The notes: generated from the letters alone by a model not told the origin. A stretch of DNA of 41,731 bases from Burkholderiales bacterium (GCA_037969525.1 JBBKXO010000152.1:1-41731), one strand, 5' to 3'; positions 28,170 to 37,896 are shown, counted from the first letter of the stretch. Program-made: numbers and translations.

Positions 28170-28340
28170 TCAGGACGAGATGGCAATCATGTCAAAGTCG
28201 GCCTTGGTCGCCGAACAATGCGGGCAGGTCCAGTCGGCCGGCACATCTTCCCAGCGCGTACCCGGGTTGATGCCCTCATCGGGCAACCCCGCCGCCTCGT
28301 CATAGATGAAACCGCACAGGATGCACTGCCATGTTTTCAT
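28170..28340 (-). CDS. Rubredoxin (56 aa)
   Basis: Below the ORF-track length cut-off. My translation is MKTWQCILCGFIYDEAAGLPDEGINPGTRWEDVPADWTCPHCSATKADFDMIAISS, with the CxxCG...W..P..W.CP.C rubredoxin signature. AGGAG lies 6 nt upstream of the ATG. The start is 14 bp after the stop of the upstream dehydrogenase gene. Coordinates cross-checked against neighbouring ORF frames. Confidence 0.85.
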   Translation of the reverse strand: MKTWQCILCGFIYDEAAGLPDEGINPGTRWEDVPADWTCPHCSATKADFDMIAISS

Positions 28341-28354
28341 GCCGTGCTCCTGAC

Positions 28355-29347
28355 TCAGCCCTGTTCGTTCTGCATGGCCTTGCCGCGGGCATAGAGCTGC
28401 AGGTTGCCGTTAAACACCTGGGCGGCGCGGCCGTCGTTGCCGCCAGAGGCCGATGCATTGTGCGGGGACACGATCACATTGGGAATATCCCACAGCGGCG
28501 AATCGGCAGGCAGCGGCTCTTTTTCAAACACATCGAGATAGGCACCGGCAATCTGCTTGTTCTGCAACGCCGCGATCAGCGCCTTTTCATCAGCCACCGC
28601 GCCGCGCGCGACATTGATGACATACGCGTGCTTCGGCATCAGCGCCAGCGTCTTGGCGTTGACCAGTTGATGCGTTTCCTTGGTGTACGGACAGGCCAGC
28701 ACCAGCCAGTCGCAGCGCGGCAGCAATTCCGGCAGCTTGTCCAGTGTGTGCATCTCGTCCACCGGGTCGCCGTCCCGCTGCGGACTGCGCCGCAGGCCGA
28801 TTACTTTCATGTCCATGGCCTGACAGAAGCGTGCAACCGTGGCGCCGATGGTACCGAGACCGACAACGATCACCGTCTGGCCGCGCAAATCGCGCGGCGT
28901 ATCCTTGCCCCGGGCCGGATCCCAGCGCCGTTCGCGCTGGCCCGCTATCCAGCGCGGAAAACCGCGCGCCAGCATCAGCAGGCCGCAGATCGCCGTCTGC
29001 CCGACGGGTTCGCCATTGGTTCCGGCCGACGTGGTCAGCCGCACCTTGCGCTCATGCAGCGCTGGCAGGAACGGGTGCTGATCAATACCGGTGCTGGTGA
29101 AATGCACCCATTTCAAATTGGGCGCCACTTTCAGGGTGTCGCCAAAGCTGTGATAGTGGTCCGAGAAGCGGATATCGCGGGTCAGATAGGCGGCTTCGAT
29201 TTTCGCGATTTCCGATGCCGGCAGCCGCTGCTTCGCGTCGTCAGGCAGATGAATGATCTGCGCCACCACACCCGCCGCATTCGCCGCGGCTTCCAGTTCG
29301 GCACCGAACTGCGCAACAAATCCCTTCGACAGCAATATACCGGTCAT
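28355..29347 (-). CDS. D-isomer-specific 2-hydroxyacid dehydrogenase family protein
   Basis: 330 aa with an NAD motif VVGLGTIGATVA and catalytic R...E...H arrangement (NVARG..., SPHNA). Confidence 0.8.
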   Translation of the reverse strand: MTGILLSKGFVAQFGAELEAAANAAGVVAQIIHLPDDAKQRLPASEIAKIEAAYLTRDIRFSDHYHSFGDTLKVAPNLKWVHFTSTGIDQHPFLPALHERKVRLTTSAGTNGEPVGQTAICGLLMLARGFPRWIAGQRERRWDPARGKDTPRDLRGQTVIVVGLGTIGATVARFCQAMDMKVIGLRRSPQRDGDPVDEMHTLDKLPELLPRCDWLVLACPYTKETHQLVNAKTLALMPKHAYVINVARGAVADEKALIAALQNKQIAGAYLDVFEKEPLPADSPLWDIPNVIVSPHNASASGGNDGRAAQVFNGNLQLYARGKAMQNEQG

Positions 29348-29389: not shown

Positions 29390-30298
29390 TCAGTTCTTGT
29401 CCCGCTTGAACAATGCGTCGAGCTTCTGCTCGTAGGAGTGGTAATCCAGATAATCGTAAAGATCATCACGCGATTGCATCAGATCAACCACGTTTTTCTG
29501 GTGACCATCCTTGCGGATCGCTTCATACACGCGCAGCGCGGCGGCATTGGCAGCGCGCCACGCCGACAGCGGATACAGCGCCATCGCGACATTCGCGCTG
29601 GCCAGTTCCTTGACTGAAAACAGCGGCGTCTGCCCGAATTCCGTGATATTGGCGAGTATCGGCACTTTCACGGCATCGGCAAACTGCTTGTACATCGACA
29701 GTTCGGTGATGGCTTCCGGGAAAATCATGTCGGCGCCGGCCTCCACACAGGCCACGGCACGCTCGACTGCGGCCTCCAGGCCCTCCACCGCCAGCGAATC
29801 GGTACGCGCGATGATGACGAAATTGGCATCGGTCTTGGCGTCAGCCGACGCCTTGATGCGATCGACCATTTCATCCTTGCTGACTATTTCCTTGTTCGGG
29901 CGGTGTCCGCAGCGTTTCTGCATCACCTGATCTTCAATATGCATGGCCGCGGCACCGAACTTGATCAGTGACTTCACGGTGCGTGCGATGTTGAAGGCCC
30001 CGCCAAAACCTGTATCCACATCCACCAGCAGCGGCAGGCTGCTGGCATCGGTAATTCGACGGACATCGGTCAGCACGTCGTCCAGGGTGCTGATAGCCAG
30101 ATCGGGTACCCCCAGCGAACCTGCGGCCACGCCGCCGCCCGACAGGTAAAGCGCCTTGAAGCCGCTACGCTCGGCCAGCCGGGCGTGGTAGGCATTAATG
30201 GCGCCGACAATCTGCAGTGGTTTTTCGGCAGCCATCGCCGCGCGGAAGCGGGCGCCGGCCGATTGCTGTGCTGTAGCTGCGGTGGAAAGACCAGTCAT
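29390..30298 (-). CDS. prpB: 2-Methylisocitrate lyase-like enzyme (PrpB / isocitrate lyase-PEP mutase superfamily)
   Basis: ORF-track 29390..30481 trimmed to the ATG at 30296-30298 (MTGLSTAAT...), which has AGGAG upstream. Motifs [15 protein letters not shown] and [24 protein letters not shown] match the PrpB signature. Confidence 0.7.
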
Positions 30299-30566
30299 GG
30301 AAATCACTCCTGTATCGGGTTGGGTGGCAGCCGCGTCACCGGCCGCCGGTATGGGCTGGAATCTGGGGTGCAAGCCGGGATGCAAGGGACAGTGGCCAGG
30401 GACAGGGAGTACACAGCCTACCCCGGGCCTGCTGTCCGATATCTGGACGAAATGGGTTTCCGTACAAAAAATTGCCTGCAAAAAGATAGCACAGGGCAGG
30501 CTATTCCGCTAGGACGGACACAGTGGCATAATCCCAGTTCCCCAGTATCACGATTCGGACTAAGTC

Positions 30567-31376
30567 ATGGCTATGGTAAAAAACTCTGACGACGACTCCG
30601 CGGGCCGGTTGACCGGCACTCAAAGCATAGAGCGCGCGCTGTTGCTGCTGCGCGAGATCGCCGCACACAACCGGGCCGGGTCGCGCCTGCTGGATCTCGC
30701 CACCCGTACCAACCTGCAACGACCCACGGTGCACCGCATGCTGAAATGCCTGGCTTACGAAGGCATGGTGCAGCAGGACTCCGAAACCCACCGTTATTTC
30801 CTCGGCCCGATGGCTTACGAACTCGGTCTGACCGCTGCCCCACGTTTCAATTTGCGCGAAATCTGCCACCCGGCGATGACGCGCATTGCCGATGCCACCG
30901 GCGATACGGTATTCCTCACCCAGCGCAGCGGCCTCGACGCCGTGTGCATAGACCGCCACGAAGGCACCTTCCCGATCAAGACCTTTACCCTGGAAGTCGG
31001 CATGCGCCGCCCGCTGGGCGTAGGCACCGGCAGCCTGGCAATACTGGCTGCGCTGCCCGAGGAAGAGTTTCGCGACATCATAACCAGCAACGAACCGCGG
31101 TTGCAGGAGCACGGCCTCTCGGGTCCCACGCTGATGTCGCAGGCGCGCAAGGCAAATAAACTGGGCTATGCAGTACGCGAAACCCCGTCACTGGCTGGTG
31201 TGCGTTCCATCGGCCAGGTTCTGCGCAATCAGAGCGGCATGCCGTTCGCCGCGCTGTCGATATCAGCCATTTCCAGCCGCATGGCCGATCGCCGCGTGCA
31301 GGAATTGTCGACGATGCTGCGCAACGAGTCGCGGCTGATTGAGCGCCAGATCGCCAACGGCATGGAAATCCGCTAA
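30567..31376 (+). CDS. IclR-family transcriptional regulator
   Basis: 269 aa with an N-terminal winged HTH (SIERALLLLREIA) and a C-terminal IclR effector domain. Confidence 0.85.
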   Translation: MAMVKNSDDDSAGRLTGTQSIERALLLLREIAAHNRAGSRLLDLATRTNLQRPTVHRMLKCLAYEGMVQQDSETHRYFLGPMAYELGLTAAPRFNLREICHPAMTRIADATGDTVFLTQRSGLDAVCIDRHEGTFPIKTFTLEVGMRRPLGVGTGSLAILAALPEEEFRDIITSNEPRLQEHGLSGPTLMSQARKANKLGYAVRETPSLAGVRSIGQVLRNQSGMPFAALSISAISSRMADRRVQELSTMLRNESRLIERQIANGMEIR

Positions 31377-31392
31377 GTGCATTTCGACCAGC

Positions 31393-31402
31393 ACAAATTT
31401 GT
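31393..31402. promoter_or_regulatory. Perfect 10-bp palindrome ACAAATTTGT between iclR and the first CoA-transferase (candidate operator)
   Basis: Read directly; position verified by counting from the iclR stop (31376) and the downstream ATG (31438). Confidence 0.3.
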
Positions 31403-31437
31403 CCTAAAAACCGACATCCAGCCGGATTGACGCGCCC

Positions 31438-32685
31438 ATGGGCGTGTCGCAGCGCAATTACGATACTTCGGCCCGCGGCCCCCTTGACGGCGTACGCATA
31501 GTCGATCTGTCGCGCCTAGTTGCCGGCAACATGCTGACGCAAGTGCTCGGTGATTTCGGCGCCGAAGTCATCAAGATCGAGCCGCCTGCGGGCGACACAC
31601 TGCGAGCATGGAAAGTCGAACAGGTCGATACCAACTGGAAACTGTACGCGCGCAACAAGAAAAGCCTGGGCCTCGAATTGCGCAAACCTGAAGCGCGCGA
31701 ACTGTTGCTGCAACTGGTGGCCAGGGCGGCGGTATTCGTCGAGAGCTTCCGCCCGGGCACGCTGGAATCCATGGGTCTGGGTCCTGACGCGCTGCTGGCG
31801 CGCAACCCGAAACTGGTCATCGTACGCATCTCGGGCTGGGGCCAGGACGGACCTTACAAGCGGCGCCCCGGCTTCGGCACACTGGTTGAAGGCATGTCCG
31901 GTTTCGCGGCGCTGAACGGATTCGAGGACCGGGAACCCGTATTGCCGCCGATGTATCTTGCCGACACTATCGCCGGATTGTACGGCGCGACCGGTGTCAT
32001 GATCGCGCTGCGTGAAGTCGAACAGAATCAAGGCAAGGGACAGGTCATCGACCTGCCGCTGCTTGATCCGCTGTTCGCCGTACTGGGACCCCAGGCCGCC
32101 AATTACCGGCTGACCGGCAGGATCAAGCCGCGCACCGGCAGCCGCTCGACCAACGCCGCGCCGCGCAATGCCTATAAATGCAAGGACGGCAAGTATGTCG
32201 GTCTATCGGCTTCGATCCAGAAAATGGCCGAGCGCGTATTTGAATCCATCGGCCGCCCCGATCTGATCAACAACCCGCGCTATAAAACCAATGCCGACCG
32301 GGTGAGGCATGCTGCCGAACTCGATGCCATCATCGGCGAATTCATCGCGCAGCGCACCCAGGCTGAGAATGTCGCATTCTTCGAAAAAGCCGACGTCACC
32401 ATCGGTCCAATCTACGACATTTCACAGATTGTCGAAGATCCGCATGTACTCGCACGCGAATTGATTGCTGATTACCCCGATCCGGACATGGACGCTTACC
32501 CGATGCACCATGTCGTGCCACGGCTGTCGGGCACGCCGGCGTCGATCCGCACGCCGGCACCGAAAATCGGCGAACACAACGCGGCACTGCTCTCCGAACT
32601 TGGCATTGATGCCGCGGCCTATCAAAAACTGCTGGCGGCGGGCATCGTCTGCGCCGGCGGCACGGCACCCGCCGCCGAAGAATGA
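31438..32685 (+). CDS. Family III (CaiB/BaiF) acyl-CoA transferase
   Basis: 415 aa with GPLDGVRIVDLSRLVAGN and a conserved Asp region (...LADTIAGL...) typical of family III CoA-transferases. Confidence 0.85.
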   Translation: MGVSQRNYDTSARGPLDGVRIVDLSRLVAGNMLTQVLGDFGAEVIKIEPPAGDTLRAWKVEQVDTNWKLYARNKKSLGLELRKPEARELLLQLVARAAVFVESFRPGTLESMGLGPDALLARNPKLVIVRISGWGQDGPYKRRPGFGTLVEGMSGFAALNGFEDREPVLPPMYLADTIAGLYGATGVMIALREVEQNQGKGQVIDLPLLDPLFAVLGPQAANYRLTGRIKPRTGSRSTNAAPRNAYKCKDGKYVGLSASIQKMAERVFESIGRPDLINNPRYKTNADRVRHAAELDAIIGEFIAQRTQAENVAFFEKADVTIGPIYDISQIVEDPHVLARELIADYPDPDMDAYPMHHVVPRLSGTPASIRTPAPKIGEHNAALLSELGIDAAAYQKLLAAGIVCAGGTAPAAEE

Positions 32686-32728
32686 CCGGCGGCCTGCGTT
32701 TTAACCAATCAAACTGAAGGATTACGAC

Positions 32729-33640
32729 ATGTATCGTGAATATCCGGTGTGGCGCTCATTGATGTATGTGCCGGTCAATGTTGAAAAATACGTGGACAAG
32801 GCACACACGCGCGGCGCCGACGTCATCCAGCTGGATATAGAAGACAGCGTGCCGCCGGCCCAGAAAGCCAATGCCCGCAAACTGGTCGAGAAAAATGCGG
32901 CACGCGTGCGCCGCGGCGGCGCCGACGTGGTGGTACGCATCAACCAGCCGCTGTCGATGGCGGTGCGCGATATCGAGCATTCGGTGTGCCCCGACGTCAA
33001 TGGCATCGCCGTCACCAAAGCCTCAGGCGCGGCGCACCTGCAGTTGCTTGACGAACTGGTCAGCGAGCTTGAGCAAAAGCGCGGCATGACGATCGGCCAC
33101 ACCAAATTCATAGTAATGATCGAAACGCCCGAGGCTTTTTTCCAGATTCGTGAAATTACCCAGGCCAGCAGCCGCACCATCGCCTGCAACATTGGCGGCG
33201 AGGACTTCGCGCTCAACAACAACATGCAACCAACCGGTGACGCGCTGTTTTATCCGAAGCAGCACATGGTTTTCGCGGCCAACGCCGCCGGCATCATGCC
33301 TCTGGGTTTTGTTGACAGCGTTGCCACCTTCGGCGACTGGGACAATTTCCGCAAAATGGTGCGCCGTTCCCGCGATTTCGGTTTCATGGGTGCCGGCTGC
33401 ATACACCCCGGGCAGGTCACCATTGTCAACGAGGAATACAAACCCAGTGCTGCCGAAGTCGAGTACGCGCGCAAGGTCATCGCGCTCGACAAGGAGGCTG
33501 CAGCGGCAGGTCGCGCATCCTTCGCGCTCGACGGCAAGATGGTCGATATTCCCATCATCGTGCGCGCCGAGCGCCTGCTCAAACGCTACGCAGCCATCAC
33601 AGCGCGCGAAGCAAAAACCCTGGCAGCAATGCAGGGCTGA
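32729..33640 (+). CDS. HpcH/HpaI-CitE-like acyl-CoA lyase (citramalyl-/malyl-CoA lyase-like)
   Basis: 303 aa with RSLMYVPVN..., DLEDS-like IQLDIEDSV and a CitE-like C-terminal half. The start could be the internal Met at 32762. Confidence 0.8.
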   Translation: MYREYPVWRSLMYVPVNVEKYVDKAHTRGADVIQLDIEDSVPPAQKANARKLVEKNAARVRRGGADVVVRINQPLSMAVRDIEHSVCPDVNGIAVTKASGAAHLQLLDELVSELEQKRGMTIGHTKFIVMIETPEAFFQIREITQASSRTIACNIGGEDFALNNNMQPTGDALFYPKQHMVFAANAAGIMPLGFVDSVATFGDWDNFRKMVRRSRDFGFMGAGCIHPGQVTIVNEEYKPSAAEVEYARKVIALDKEAAAAGRASFALDGKMVDIPIIVRAERLLKRYAAITAREAKTLAAMQG

Positions 33641-33746
33641 TAATTAAATCCTATAAATCAACGTGTTACGATTATCATCCGTCATCGCTTCAGCGTCCCC
33701 GCCAACATTGATTTGTTGATCGCTTTGCAATTTAATCAAACCTTCC

Positions 33747-34598
33747 ATGCGTAACGTCTCCACCACCAGCATCACCCAGGCCGTCGTGCATTCGTTCAAC
33801 GGCGCTACCGATCCGCGTTTCAAGCACTTGATCGAGCGGCTGACACATCACCTGCATGCCTTCGCCCGCGAGGTGAAGCTGACACCTGAAGAATGGAAGG
33901 CCGGCATCGATTTTCTCTACCATGCCGGCAAGATTTCGGATGAAGCGCGCAACGAATTCATTTTGACCTCCGACGTGCTTGGCCTGTCATCACTGGTCGA
34001 TCTGCTGCAAAGTGGCGCCGGCGGCACAGAGCGTAGTGCGCTGGGGCCATTTCACGCCGACGGATCACCTACCCTCGCAGTTGGCACCGACATCAAGCGT
34101 GACAATGATGGTGAACCCATGCTTGTCAGCGGTTGCGTGCTCGACGCTGATGGCCATGCAGTCGCCGGAGCGCAACTCGATTTCTGGCAGGCCGCGGTCA
34201 ATGGCCTGTACTGGCAGCAGGATCCGCAGCAGGACAAAAACAACCTGCGTTTCCGCATGATCACGGGGGCAGACGGTTACTACGCCTTTACCACGATCCG
34301 GCCCGCTTCTTATACCGTGCCTTATGACGGCCCGGTCGGAGACCTTCTCCGCGCCGGCGGCCGCCATGCATGGCGCCCCGCGCATTTCCATTTCATCGTC
34401 AGCGCCACCAACCATCAACCGCTGACTACTGAAGTATTTTTTGCCGATGATCCTTATATCGACGCCGATGCCGTATTCGGAGTACGCGAGTCACTGCTGG
34501 TCAATACACGCAGCAATACGGACAGTGCGCTGGCGCAACGCCATCGGCTGACCGTGCCCTTTCATAGCGTGGAGTTCGACTTCCGCTTGAGCCGCTAG
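33747..34598 (+). CDS. Intradiol ring-cleavage dioxygenase (hydroxyquinol/catechol 1,2-dioxygenase family)
   Basis: 283 aa with an N-terminal helical dimerisation region, candidate Tyr ligands in GLYWQQ and ASYTVPY, and a His pair in RPAHFHF. Confidence 0.85.
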   Translation: MRNVSTTSITQAVVHSFNGATDPRFKHLIERLTHHLHAFAREVKLTPEEWKAGIDFLYHAGKISDEARNEFILTSDVLGLSSLVDLLQSGAGGTERSALGPFHADGSPTLAVGTDIKRDNDGEPMLVSGCVLDADGHAVAGAQLDFWQAAVNGLYWQQDPQQDKNNLRFRMITGADGYYAFTTIRPASYTVPYDGPVGDLLRAGGRHAWRPAHFHFIVSATNHQPLTTEVFFADDPYIDADAVFGVRESLLVNTRSNTDSALAQRHRLTVPFHSVEFDFRLSR

Positions 34599-34651
34599 GG
34601 CCCGCCTTAGAATCGAGCAGATCCCACAGCAACAACCGAGGTAATTCACGC

Positions 34652-35503
34652 ATGCCTGCAGATCTTGAATCCCTGAAGCAATGGATTGGACGCACTGAAT
34701 CGGCGATCGACTATGTCACTGTACCCGCCGTAGACCGGTTGTCGGCGACGCTTGATCGTGATGACGCTTTCCCCAAAATGGGCGATCGGTTGCCCGTTGG
34801 CTGGCACGCCATACTGTTCCCGCGTATCGTGCGTCACTCGCAGATCGGTCCCGACGGCCATCCGCTGCGCGGGGATTTCCTGCCGCCGGTGCCACTGCCC
34901 CGCCGCATGTTCGCCGGCAAACGCACGACATTCATTTCTGACTTGCTCGTCGGCGATGAAGTACATCGCGAATCGGTAATCCAGAATGTCACCATCAAGG
35001 ACGGACGCAGTGGACGCATGGTCTTCGTCACCGTCAAAACCGACATCAAAAGCCCGCGCGGCATTGCAATCACCGAAGAGCAGGACATCGTCTACCGCGG
35101 CGAACCTGATAAAAACGCGCCGCCTCCTGCACCGCAACCGGCGCCGGGCAAGGCGGTGTGGTCACACCAGGTCACACCCGATCCGGTGCTGCTGTTCCGC
35201 TATTCGGCACTGACTTTCAACGGCCACCGCATTCATTACGACAAGCCCTATGTCACCGGCACCGAAGGCTATCCGGATCTGATCATGAACGGCGGGCTGA
35301 CGACGCTGCTGACTTACGAACTCGCTCGCAGCCACGGCTCCACGCCGATCAAGTACATGTCTTCGCGCAACGTGCGCGCGCTGTTCGTCAACCGCACCAT
35401 CACTTTCTGCGGCGAACCCAGCGCCGACAACAAGACGGCGAAACTGTGGGCGCAGGATGACACCGGCGCCGTGGCGCTATCTGCAGAAGCGGAGTTTGCC
35501 TAG
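34652..35503 (+). CDS. HTD2/MaoC-N-type hotdog-fold enoyl-CoA hydratase (mesaconyl-C4-CoA / itaconyl-CoA hydratase-like)
   Basis: 283 aa with a C-terminal motif FNGHRIHYDKPYVTGTEGYPDLIMNGGL that I associate with the Meh/HTD2 group. GAGG lies upstream of the ATG. Confidence 0.6.
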   Translation: MPADLESLKQWIGRTESAIDYVTVPAVDRLSATLDRDDAFPKMGDRLPVGWHAILFPRIVRHSQIGPDGHPLRGDFLPPVPLPRRMFAGKRTTFISDLLVGDEVHRESVIQNVTIKDGRSGRMVFVTVKTDIKSPRGIAITEEQDIVYRGEPDKNAPPPAPQPAPGKAVWSHQVTPDPVLLFRYSALTFNGHRIHYDKPYVTGTEGYPDLIMNGGLTTLLTYELARSHGSTPIKYMSSRNVRALFVNRTITFCGEPSADNKTAKLWAQDDTGAVALSAEAEFA

Positions 35504-35799
35504 AGCACCCGACAGGTTAAAACACGCGTGCGCTATCACGATTTTGGTTCAGGGCAAGGCGCGGCCCGCAGCAAATATCGAGAATATTCGCAAGGGGCGC
35601 AACGCGGCCTTGGACCAAAATCGTGATCGCCCTTTTTAAAGGATATGAGAAATGAATGATGCTTTTGGGGTTGCGGCCAGAACCGGCGCTGACTTTGTCG
35701 GCCGGCTTGCCCATATTCGCGATATGACCCGCGCCATCCTTCGCGTCAGCGCCGATTCTGACTCGCAACGCACACGCGTTTTATCCTGTCGGGTGCTCT
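35502..35799. repeat. 298-bp nested inverted-repeat element (outer 31-bp arms plus two internal long hairpin modules); MITE-like repeat or structured intercistronic RNA
   Basis: Outer arms 35502-35532 / 35769-35799 are complementary at 28/31 positions, with the first 15 perfect. Module A (35532-35630) has perfect 14-bp arms at 35535-35548 / 35614-35627. Module B arms 35678-35693 / 35745-35760 match at 15/16. Coordinates cross-checked against flanking ORF frames. Function unknown. Confidence 0.8.
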
Positions 35800-35800
35800 G

Positions 35801-37015
35801 ATGGCCGGCGGACCCCTGGAAGGCATCAAGATCATCGACATGACCTCGGTGGTCGTCGGCCCGCTGGCAACCCAGACTTTTGCCGACCATGGCGCAGACG
35901 TCATCAAGGTCGAAGCGCCGGGCGGCGACATCGTGCGATTTCTCGCCGGCCGTGGCCGCACTGCCGGCATGTCCGGTAAATACCTGCACCTCAACCGCAA
36001 CAAGCGCTCGCTGGTGCTGGACATGAAAAAACCCGGCGCCTACGCCGCGCTGATGAAATTGCTGGAAACTGCCGATGTGCTGATCTGGAACATGCGGCCG
36101 CCGGCAATGAAGCGGCTGAAGCTGTCCTACGAAGACGTGTGCAAGGTCAATCCCAAGATCATTTACTGCGGCATGTTCGGTTTCGGTCAGGAAGGACGTT
36201 ACCGGGATAAACCGGCCTACGATTCGATCATTCAGGGCTCCGCCGGCATTGCCGCGCTGTACCACATGGCCACCGGCGAACCGCGCTACCTGCCGATGGT
36301 GGTGGCTGACCGCACCGTGGGGCTGATCGCCGTACAGATGATCCTGATGGCGCTGCTGCACCGCGAACGCACCGGCGAAGGCCAATCGATAGAACTGCCG
36401 ATGTTCGAAAACATGGTCAAGTCGGTGCTCGAAGAGCACATGTACCTGAAAACCTTTGATCCGCCGCTGGGCCCGGTCGGTGATCCGCGACTGACCGACC
36501 CGCAGGCACGGCCGCTGCCGACCAAGGACGGCTGGGTCTGCGTCTCGGCTAACACTGACGGTCAGGCCTTCGCGGTATTCGATGCCATCGGCAAACCGGA
36601 ATTGAAAACCGATCCGCGCTTCAACACCGTCGCTGCGCGATTCAAGAACACCCCGGAATATTTCAGCATCCGTGCCGAAGGTCTGAAGAAGAAAACCACG
36701 GCAGAATGGATAGAAATCTTCGATCGCACCGATGTGCCGGCGATGCCATTCCAGACACTCGATCAGATCATGGAAGATCCGCATCTCAAGGACATCGGCT
36801 TTTTCGAGAAAATCGAGCACCCGACCGAAGGCAAAATCTGGAACATGAAACTGCCGAACAAGCTGTCGCGTGGCGCACGCAGAGATTTTCGCCATGCCCC
36901 GAAGATTGGCGAACAAAGCCTTGAGGTTTTGCGGGAGGCTGGTCTGTCGGAGGCGGATATCGCCGCGCTGCTGGCCAATGGCGCAACGCTGGATGGACGC
37001 CCGGAAAAAAAATGA
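35801..37015 (+). CDS. Family III (CaiB/BaiF) acyl-CoA transferase, second copy
   Basis: 404 aa with MAGGPLEGIKIIDMTSVVVGP and family III core motifs. Paralogous to 31438..32685. Confidence 0.85.
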   Translation: MAGGPLEGIKIIDMTSVVVGPLATQTFADHGADVIKVEAPGGDIVRFLAGRGRTAGMSGKYLHLNRNKRSLVLDMKKPGAYAALMKLLETADVLIWNMRPPAMKRLKLSYEDVCKVNPKIIYCGMFGFGQEGRYRDKPAYDSIIQGSAGIAALYHMATGEPRYLPMVVADRTVGLIAVQMILMALLHRERTGEGQSIELPMFENMVKSVLEEHMYLKTFDPPLGPVGDPRLTDPQARPLPTKDGWVCVSANTDGQAFAVFDAIGKPELKTDPRFNTVAARFKNTPEYFSIRAEGLKKKTTAEWIEIFDRTDVPAMPFQTLDQIMEDPHLKDIGFFEKIEHPTEGKIWNMKLPNKLSRGARRDFRHAPKIGEQSLEVLREAGLSEADIAALLANGATLDGRPEKK

Positions 37016-37068
37016 ACTGTGCCCGGGTTCGGGCATAATCTTTCGCCCGCACATTCTTGGAGATCCCC

Positions 37069-37896
37069 ATGTTCTCGAGTTTCCGTCACAGCCTTTTGAC
37101 AACCCTGCTGGTTACCGCTGCGCTAGCCGGATTGAATCCTGCGCAGGCGCAAACGGCGAATACCGAGTACACCCCGCAGGTGGGACAGTCCGGCAAGGAC
37201 GTGATCTGGGTGCCGACACCGAAAAGCCTGGTTGAGAAAATGCTGAAAATGGCGGACGTCAAGCCCACCGATTACGTCATTGATCTCGGTGCCGGCGATG
37301 GCGTCACGGTGATTACCGCGGCCAAGCAGTTCGGCGTCCGTGCGTTGGGCATTGAATACAATCCGGAAATGGTCGAGTTGGCCAAACGCAATGCGCAAAA
37401 TGAGGGCGTTGCCGCCCGCGCCGAATTCGTGCGCGGCGATATTTTCACCACGGATTTCAGCCAGGCCACCGTGCTGACGATGTACCTGCTGCCCTACCTG
37501 AACATGAAACTGCGGCCGACCATACTCAACATGAAACCCGGCACGCGCATCGTTTCGCACGCCTTTACGATGGAAGACTGGATGCCGGATCAAACCGACT
37601 CCACCGAGGGCCGCACGGCTTATTTGTGGATCGTTCCGGCCAAGGTCGAGGGCCGCTGGAAAATCGGTCAGAGTGAAATCGAGTTGAAACAGAAATTCCA
37701 GGCCTTCGAGGGTACGTACCGCACCAATGACACCACCTGGCGTCTGACCCATGTCAACCTGCGCGGCGACCAGATCAGTTTCACCGCCGGCACCGCGACC
37801 TACACCGGGCGCGTCACCGGCTCGATCATGCAGGGCACGATGCGTCCCCGCCCCGACGCCCAGGCTGTCGCCTGGAGCGGCGCCCTGATCAAGTAG
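37069..37896 (+). CDS. Class I SAM-dependent methyltransferase with an N-terminal Sec-type signal peptide and a beta-rich C-terminal domain
   Basis: ORF-track TTG 37057 trimmed to the ATG at 37069, with GGAG 5 nt upstream. Signal-like MFSSFRHSLLTTLLVTAALAGLNPAQA-Q. SAM motif I VIDLGAGDGVTVI. Confidence 0.75.
   Translation: MFSSFRHSLLTTLLVTAALAGLNPAQAQTANTEYTPQVGQSGKDVIWVPTPKSLVEKMLKMADVKPTDYVIDLGAGDGVTVITAAKQFGVRALGIEYNPEMVELAKRNAQNEGVAARAEFVRGDIFTTDFSQATVLTMYLLPYLNMKLRPTILNMKPGTRIVSHAFTMEDWMPDQTDSTEGRTAYLWIVPAKVEGRWKIGQSEIELKQKFQAFEGTYRTNDTTWRLTHVNLRGDQISFTAGTATYTGRVTGSIMQGTMRPRPDAQAVAWSGALIK

Follow-up and report, generated by a model that had tools for sequence, protein, structure and literature searches.

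The stretch of DNA analysed here (hereafter, the window) comprises 41,731 nucleotides of a Burkholderiales bacterium (GCA_037969525.1, JBBKXO010000152.1:1-41731) and corresponds to contig C152 of a metagenome-assembled genome (3.1 Mb, 430 contigs, 92.6% complete). The host is an uncultured betaproteobacterium of soil and freshwater, and metagenomes from beach sand, soil and sediment contain DNA near-identical to the window. This work concerns the cluster at positions 30567-37015, in which the genes of two family III coenzyme A (CoA)-transferases, a CitE-like lyase, an intradiol dioxygenase and a hydratase related to itaconyl-CoA hydratase (Ich) stand behind one IclR-family regulator gene, a composition resembling that of C5-dicarboxylate catabolism. 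Branched C5-dicarboxylates, itaconate, mesaconate and methylsuccinate among them, currently attract attention in three roles: as immunometabolites, as antimicrobials and as platform chemicals.

Six genes on the same strand had been proposed for this locus in a previous inspection of the DNA (the sequence-only reading), and all of them were recovered on the + strand as open reading frames with exactly the proposed boundaries and Pfam families. The IclR-family transcriptional regulator (30567-31376; HTH_IclR and IclR_C) is followed by module 1, which consists of the CoA-transferase CoAT1 (31438-32685; CoA_transf_3) as its first gene and the CitE-like beta-hydroxyacyl-CoA lyase (32729-33640; HpcH_HpaI). 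Downstream of a 106-bp spacer (33641-33746) lies a hydroxyquinol-type intradiol ring-cleavage dioxygenase (33747-34598; Dioxygenase_N and Dioxygenase_C), and then module 2, in which the Ich/Meh-type double hot-dog enoyl-CoA hydratase (34652-35503; FAS1_DH_region) is separated by a structured spacer of 297 bp (35504-35800) from the second transferase, CoAT2 (35801-37015; CoA_transf_3). The intergenic gaps from the IclR gene to a methyltransferase gene beyond CoAT2 measure 61, 43, 106, 53, 297 and 41 bp, terminator prediction on the + strand gave no terminator-like site upstream of 37975, and we infer that the six genes are co-transcribed. Two sequencing runs of presumed RNA origin (X9 and X11) yielded short contigs for parts of this region, one of which crosses the iclR-CoAT1 junction; as contigs cannot reveal transcripts, these were left out of the evidence.

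A query of the genome collection with the dioxygenase returned 80 loci, and the 45 species-level loci with a dioxygenase at least 60% identical to that of the window were used for counts. The gene families, the anatomy of the cluster, how well it is conserved and where genes were inserted or lost could be read directly from the sequences. The CoA genes stand alongside the dioxygenase in 40 of the 45 loci, so the conserved arrangement for which a comparison of neighbourhoods had been suggested does exist; the other five are four short contigs or contig ends and one true stand-alone case (L078). The gene order of the cluster is far from what chance would produce.

A TctC-family binding-protein gene is found immediately upstream of the dioxygenase in 43 of the 45 loci, and in the mapped loci it is the orthologue of the gene called here TctC-b (Tb). 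The usual order in the genus is IclR, TctC-a, CoAT1, lyase, TctC-b, dioxygenase, hydratase, CoAT2, TctC-c and methyltransferase. All three TctC genes are absent from the window and from one relative (L016 = L040), two are missing in another locus (L053) and one in a third (L043). The spacer at 33641-33746 is the TctC deletion site, the window's counterpart of the position held by TctC-b. An independent soil-metagenome contig that covers 33415-35453 has no TctC gene either, and the deletion is therefore no assembly artefact; the missing TctC genes of the window represent a derived, stepwise loss. The sequence-only reading was right that the cluster contains no transporter, acyl-CoA dehydrogenase or thiolase gene, and a transporter is lacking because the three TctC genes retained by most relatives were deleted. 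Elsewhere the genome holds approximately 110 TctC and 13 TctA genes (e.g., on contigs C156, C212, C129, and C114), hence a local uptake gene is not required. Some 110 TctC genes in 3.1 Mb constitute an extreme investment in carboxylate scavenging; the same 3.1 Mb contain 12 family III CoA-transferase and 12 MmgE/PrpD-family matches. When two TctC proteins of the relatives were compared with solved structures, Bug27 and the terephthalate-binding protein were equally close, and consequently no ligand can be inferred for them.

The two transferases share 32% identity, and both match CoA_transf_3 (PF02515) over its full length (CoAT1: 391.8 bits, profile 1-366 of 366; CoAT2: 331.6 bits, profile 1-365 of 366). 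The best solved relative of CoAT1 is a succinate-hydroxymethylglutarate CoA-transferase (9br6, 214.6 bits) and its best NCBIfam model is the succinate-glutarate CoA-transferase (249 bits, cut-off 750), while the best model for CoAT2 is the formyl-CoA transferase (227 bits, cut-off 442). Asp176 of CoAT1 aligns with Asp170 of CoAT2, and the latter with an Asp of Escherichia coli YfdW which we take to be the catalytic Asp169 of YfdW and Frc. An identity as Frc or carnitine transferase was ruled out for both proteins by the curated model scores, and the formyl-CoA transferase model TIGR03253 yielded only 183.5 bits for CoAT1 and 212.9 bits for CoAT2 against a cut-off of 504.2. The sequence-only reading had offered two explanations for the presence of two transferases. 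One of them, an intramolecular shift of CoA from C1 to C4 as carried out by Mct, found no support, as CoAT1 and CoAT2 score 71.9 and 52.3 bits against the Mct model TIGR04253 with its cut-off of 725; the other, two different acid substrates, fits both the two-module anatomy of the relatives and the organisation of operon2 and operon3 in Cupriavidus necator (PMC13491972). In the relatives CoAT1 is invariably paired with a CitE-like gene, and CoAT2 adjoins the hydratase gene in nearly all of them.

Within the genus (L013-L032), CoAT1 falls into two classes with either ~91-93% or ~75-78% identity to the protein of the window, and CoAT2 likewise into two classes (~93-94% or ~69-70%), whereas the flanking hydratase and lyase of the same loci keep a steady 84-93%. 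The two identity classes of the transferases beside uniform hydratases and lyases suggest that alleles may have been replaced module by module through recombination.

The lyase matches HpcH_HpaI (PF03328) over its full length (96.9 bits, profile 1-221 of 221) and belongs to the same HpcH/CitE TIM-barrel family as the malyl-, citramalyl- and citryl-CoA lyases (5ugr, 4l9y, CLYBL 5vxc, CitE 1sgj, and PaCcl 8khl). It is approximately equidistant from all characterised members (79-116 bits); its best solved structure is malyl-CoA lyase 5ugr (115.7 bits) and PaCcl 8khl reaches 79 bits. It also falls short of the NCBIfam citE model (175.7 bits, cut-off 443.4) and of the Ccl/RipC model NF038242 (116.2 bits, cut-off 375), and is thus no member of the latter. 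More than 100 homologues with 78-93% identity are present in metagenomes, and the profile scores place the protein in what appears to be an uncharacterised CitE-like subfamily. The reaction expected of it is the one it would share with these lyases, the cleavage of a 3-hydroxy-3-carboxy-acyl-CoA into acetyl-CoA and a 2-oxoacid.

For the hydratase the kinship is closer. It matches the itaconyl-CoA hydratase of Pseudomonas aeruginosa (8khg) with an E-value of 4e-53 (residues 9-273 against 7-266 of 275), by which homology it is a true Ich/Meh-family protein, and in this respect the proposed logic of CoA-transferase, hydratase and CitE-type lyase holds. In a maximum-likelihood tree the window-type hydratases nevertheless form a clade apart from the Ich proteins borne on canonical itaconate clusters (support 100/100, branch 0.82), to which the hydratase is 49-54% identical, so that it is not their orthologue. 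The genome encodes a second Ich paralogue (41-44% identity; G000:C25:3-608, with L116 = G003:C14:143998-144840 and L117 = G009:C37), which was rejected as a canonical itaconate cluster since neither transferase nor lyase genes accompany it. Its neighbours are MmgE/PrpD-family, TauD-family dioxygenase and acyl-CoA dehydrogenase genes, and this neighbourhood is probably another uncharacterised C5-type module.

A canonical cluster from the same order of bacteria (L128; transferase-Ich-acyl-CoA dehydrogenase-PrpD-lyase) served as a reference: its hydratase is 51%, its transferase ~32% and its lyase ~30% identical to the proteins of the window. At such identities, and with no curated model passed by CoAT1 or CoAT2, the window transferases are not orthologues of its Ict, and because of them the window cluster as a whole is to be regarded as a paralogous system rather than an Ict-Ich-Ccl orthologue. 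It is accordingly very improbable that the locus is a plain itaconate operon with true Ict, Ich and Ccl orthologues and itaconate as physiological substrate; the match of the hydratase to PaIch (E 4e-53) and the formal presence of the triad of activities speak for this, and the identities to L128, the long branch of the hydratase clade, the 116 bits of the lyase against the RipC_Ccl model (cut-off 375) and the lack of an Mcd or methylsuccinate isomerase gene in the window speak against it.

The known clusters offer further points of comparison. P. aeruginosa PA0878-PA0883 and C. necator operon1 (Ich, Mcd, MmgE/PrpD isomerase, Ict, and Ccl) have in common with the window a family III CoA-transferase, an Ich-type hydratase and a CitE/HpcH-type lyase, and an MmgE/PrpD-family gene is likewise present in some of the clusters related to that of the window, this being the family from which the methylsuccinate isomerase of known itaconate clusters derives (PMC12290011). 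The window, in contrast, lacks both the acyl-CoA dehydrogenase and the PrpD-family gene and possesses a second transferase, and the composition was thus rightly described as non-canonical. In C. necator H16, the canonical operon1 is supplemented in itaconate turnover by operon2 (ict2-ich2) and operon3 (ict3-ccl2), citramalate and mesaconate accumulate when ccl units are lost, and mesaconate induces operon3 (PMC13491972). The pairing is the same as in the window, transferase with hydratase and transferase with lyase; the C. necator units are separate loci, whereas those of the window are fused behind one IclR gene, and the itaconate-responsive regulator ItcR1 of C. necator is LysR-type.

Taken from family membership and gene linkage, the reading that we favour, with a probability of roughly 0.5, is that of an IclR-controlled operon by which a short dicarboxylic acid, of a type such as itaconate, mesaconate, citramalate or malate, would be degraded through CoA esters, with two modules that each have a family III CoA-transferase. 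CoAT2 of module 2 would activate an unsaturated short dicarboxylate, the Ich-like enzyme of the same module would hydrate the CoA ester to a 3-hydroxy-3-carboxy-acyl-CoA, and the CitE-like lyase of module 1 would split that ester into acetyl-CoA and a 2-oxoacid. CoAT1 would admit the corresponding hydroxy acid directly, or a second acid, the IclR protein would control the whole gene set, and the dioxygenase would be an accessory enzyme outside this core that arrived with its own binding protein. All these steps and the substrate itself, which could be a C4, C5 or C6 acid, are deduced in this indirect way.

Several observations weigh against this reading. CoAT1, CoAT2 and the lyase do not pass a single NCBIfam cut-off, their identity to canonical Ict and Ccl is ~30-32%, and malyl-CoA lyase and CitE score higher with the lyase than Ccl does; given such low identities and missed cut-offs, the substrate is possibly not a C5 acid. 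In one family (f16; L064 and L066) the hydratase gene is found away from CoAT2 beside an HMG-CoA-lyase-like gene and another transferase, which hints at C6 substrates. Moreover, the persistence of the dioxygenase in the operon of ~40 species exceeds what is expected of a neutral passenger. The C5-dicarboxylate interpretation of the sequence-only reading has held in part: the hydratase is homologous to Ich, but the profile check that had been suggested for Ict, Ccl, SmtAB and Frc orthology turned out negative, the transferases and the lyase not being Ict/Ccl orthologues, and the Mct idea was not supported.

The dioxygenase contains the N-terminal helical domain (PF04444, 92.4 bits) and the catalytic domain (PF00775, 154.3 bits), the two-domain fold of the hydroxyquinol 1,2-dioxygenases, which are also its best-scoring solved family at 217-233 bits (PnpC 3n9t, 233; 6-chlorohydroxyquinol dioxygenase 8r2x, 218; and 1tmx, 217). 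Every one of the 44 clade members has Tyr155, Tyr189, His213 and His215, and 43 of them also have the nearby Arg210; the first four align with what we take to be the Fe(III) ligands of 1tmx (Tyr164, Tyr197, His221, and His223). Opposite positions 107, 108 and 199 of 1tmx the window has smaller residues (Ala, Leu and Val against Val, Phe and Ile), and the other positions that we presume to line the 1tmx active site are mostly unchanged, with no new cationic residue. The enzyme is thus intact as a catalyst, and a hydroxyquinol-like ring is most likely what it still cleaves. Unlike the hydroxyquinol 1,2-dioxygenases, its gene lies within a CoA-ester operon and, in the relatives, has the gene of a TctC carboxylate-binding protein as its partner. 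PA0880 of the P. aeruginosa cluster offers no precedent for it: this so-called "ring-cleaving dioxygenase" is described as a member of the glyoxalase family and proposed to be a 2-hydroxyparaconate lactonase (PMC12290011), not an intradiol enzyme.

Loci without the dioxygenase are informative about its origin. In one of them (L120) the order prmC-prfA-hemA-dehydrogenase-prpB-like is followed by IclR-CoAT1-lyase-hydratase-CoAT2-HADH; a second (L121) is a dioxygenase-free variant in the same hemA/prpB-like neighbourhood, and two others (L122 and L123) have the hydratase orthologue with no dioxygenase nearby. As the same locus exists without the dioxygenase, the CoA enzymes must have a job of their own. 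In the hydratase tree L123 is basal, and L120 and L122 are nested among the dioxygenase carriers, a topology in keeping with a single acquisition of the TctC-dioxygenase insert and its loss on two or more occasions. The TctC-b/dioxygenase pair also occurs away from CoA genes, both in the stand-alone locus L078 and, as less closely related versions, in L086, L088 and L093, and it is kept in ~40 species-level Burkholderiales genomes. The dioxygenase of the window is the surviving half of an old insert of TctC and dioxygenase genes between the two modules. The L120 locus lies on an 832-kb contig where hemA is broken into two parts and CoAT1 was called short of its full length; frameshifts introduced by long-read assembly seem a likelier cause than pseudogene formation.

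An association of this kind raises the question whether the dioxygenase and the CoA enzymes act in one route. According to such an account, TctC would import a hydroxylated aromatic acid, the dioxygenase would open its ring, and the resulting substituted muconate- or maleate-type acid would be processed by CoA-transferase, hydratase and lyase to acetyl-CoA and a 2-oxoacid, in place of the beta-ketoadipate route. In favour of it, the dioxygenase has been retained between lyase and hydratase in 40 of 45 species and at least two families despite rearrangements, all its iron ligands are preserved, and it is the sole intradiol dioxygenase found in the genome. In addition, only one of five genus genomes has a PcaI over the cut-off and none has a PcaF, and our queries detected no genes for a maleylacetate reductase, a hydroxylase or the beta-ketoadipate route, be it in the window or in the rest of the genus, although these queries included no dedicated model for maleylacetate reductase, the absence of which is therefore unproven. 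The only full-length iron-type alcohol dehydrogenase of the genus that was examined was rejected for this role: among curated models it scores highest with 4-hydroxybutyrate dehydrogenase (85 bits), and its neighbours are CoA-ligase and biotin-carboxylase genes; no convincing maleylacetate reductase is left. Redox helpers (OsmC and nitroreductase) occupy the same slot in other lineages, the usual coupling of the dioxygenase relatives to carboxylate uptake (TctC, TRAP) suggests an anionic aromatic substrate, and acids of the form R-C(COO-)=CH-COO-, such as 3-carboxymuconate, would be formally analogous to mesaconate.

The evidence on the other side leads us to regard this integrated route, the strongest of the rival readings, as doubtful. 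The operon exists without the dioxygenase in L120-L123, and the pair of Tb and dioxygenase without CoA genes in L078, L086, L088 and L093. Maleylacetate, the product expected from hydroxyquinol, would lack the 2-carboxy-enoyl motif used by Ich- and CitE-type enzymes, the presumed 1tmx active-site residues have hardly changed and include no added cationic residue, and a full-text literature search gave no paper on muconyl-, carboxymuconyl- or maleylacetyl-CoA. The bolder claim that the TctC-dioxygenase insert is a feeder, by which a ring-opened unsaturated polycarboxylate would go to the flanking CoA enzymes as the start of a CoA-dependent lower pathway in genome-reduced freshwater and soil Burkholderiales, we consider unlikely. 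As for the rate of change of the dioxygenase, throughout the genus it is less conserved than any other enzyme of the cluster (~80-85% against 89-95%), and since its divergence is the same with and without the binding protein, there is no specific signal in the genus of faster evolution after binding-protein loss. Its relatives at 45-59% identity adjoin genes for TRAP transporters, TonB-dependent receptors, FAA-hydrolase-family or MBL-fold hydrolases and never CoA genes. The FAA-hydrolase-family genes were seen near relatives of 49-59% identity (L080 and L088), and they hint that the product of ring cleavage may be processed by hydrolysis in these lineages.

The variability of the locus also bears on whether its parts belong together at all. 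The slot between lyase and hydratase holds OsmC, nitroreductase-family, MmgE/PrpD-family, GGDEF or HMG-CoA-lyase-like genes in other lineages, with the MmgE/PrpD-family gene found between dioxygenase and hydratase in three loci (L033, L062, and L063). Such variety would be expected if the locus were a hot spot for modules associated with TctC (Bug family), in which the CoAT1-lyase pair, the dioxygenase and the hydratase-CoAT2 pair served three unrelated substrates. Consistent with this mosaic, a separate TctC gene stands at the head of every module in the relatives, the genus has two allelic classes each of CoAT1 (~92% against ~77%) and CoAT2 (~93% against ~70%), the hydratase-CoAT2 pair occurs without CoAT1 and lyase in L033 and L122, and the hydratase stands apart from CoAT2 in f16. 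However, in most lineages no more than a few kb separate the lyase module from the hydratase module, and the two are directly adjacent in L120, which lacks the insert. Either enzyme without the other would make an incomplete pathway, and one IclR gene heads the set, so that we judge three unrelated substrates to be quite improbable.

Under the favoured reading of a two-module operon, the regulator deserves mention as the best-conserved protein of the cluster (89-96% identity across the genus). Its best NCBIfam model is BhcR with 112 bits against a cut-off of 350, and hence no equivalog could be named; the IclR protein is presumed to regulate the operon. Its gene is separated from the divergent PrpB-type gene by 268 bp (30299-30566), and a palindrome lies at 31393-31402. 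The spacer between hydratase and CoAT2 has its 297 bp and an inverted repeat in the genome of the window only, the relatives having 3-98 bp. Its right half (35667-35799) is 80% identical to non-coding DNA upstream of CoAT1 in a distant relative (L034 and L061; 5948-6080) and may represent a mobile element that serves family III CoA-transferase genes as promoter or operator. An Rfam scan of 30300-37200 with E-values up to 1 gave no match.

On its 3′ side the cluster is followed, 41 bp beyond CoAT2, by the gene of a class I S-adenosylmethionine (SAM) methyltransferase (37057-37896, +), which is syntenic in most relatives and possibly a member of the operon. Five tandem paralogues of it are found on contig C414 (1781-7816) of the same genome, and in some relatives (L122, L063, and L074) it is tandemly duplicated or triplicated at the same locus. 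On the 5′ side a divergent unit on the - strand begins with a PrpB-type methylisocitrate lyase homologue (29390-30298), which passes NCBIfam PRK11320 (531.8 bits, cut-off 353) and whose likely start codon is the Met at 30298, and continues with a D-isomer-specific 2-hydroxyacid dehydrogenase (28355-29347) and a rubredoxin of 56 amino acids (28170-28340; Pfam Rubredoxin, 77.8 bits); the next genes past it are hemA, prfA and prmC. The unit remains next to the cluster across families; the PrpB-type gene is syntenic at that level, and the dehydrogenase and rubredoxin genes are syntenic within the genus. In Acidobacteriota (L080 and L109), a D-2-hydroxyacid dehydrogenase that is 38-40% identical to that of the window is encoded ~4 kb upstream of dioxygenase relatives.

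The cluster is thus a real, conserved and, as its profile scores indicate, uncharacterised variant of C5-dicarboxylate-type CoA catabolism. The work on C. necator has pointed to redundant and poorly understood transferase-hydratase and transferase-lyase units in C5-dicarboxylate turnover, and the cluster represents such units in fused form, widespread and conserved among uncultured Burkholderiales that are abundant, with enzymes that match no characterised subfamily. The stepwise loss of three binding-protein genes within one genus provides a case of operon streamlining. Assigning a substrate would close an annotation gap that affects hundreds of metagenomic proteins, and if it were true that the dioxygenase feeds the CoA enzymes, this would be a new ending for aromatic ring degradation.

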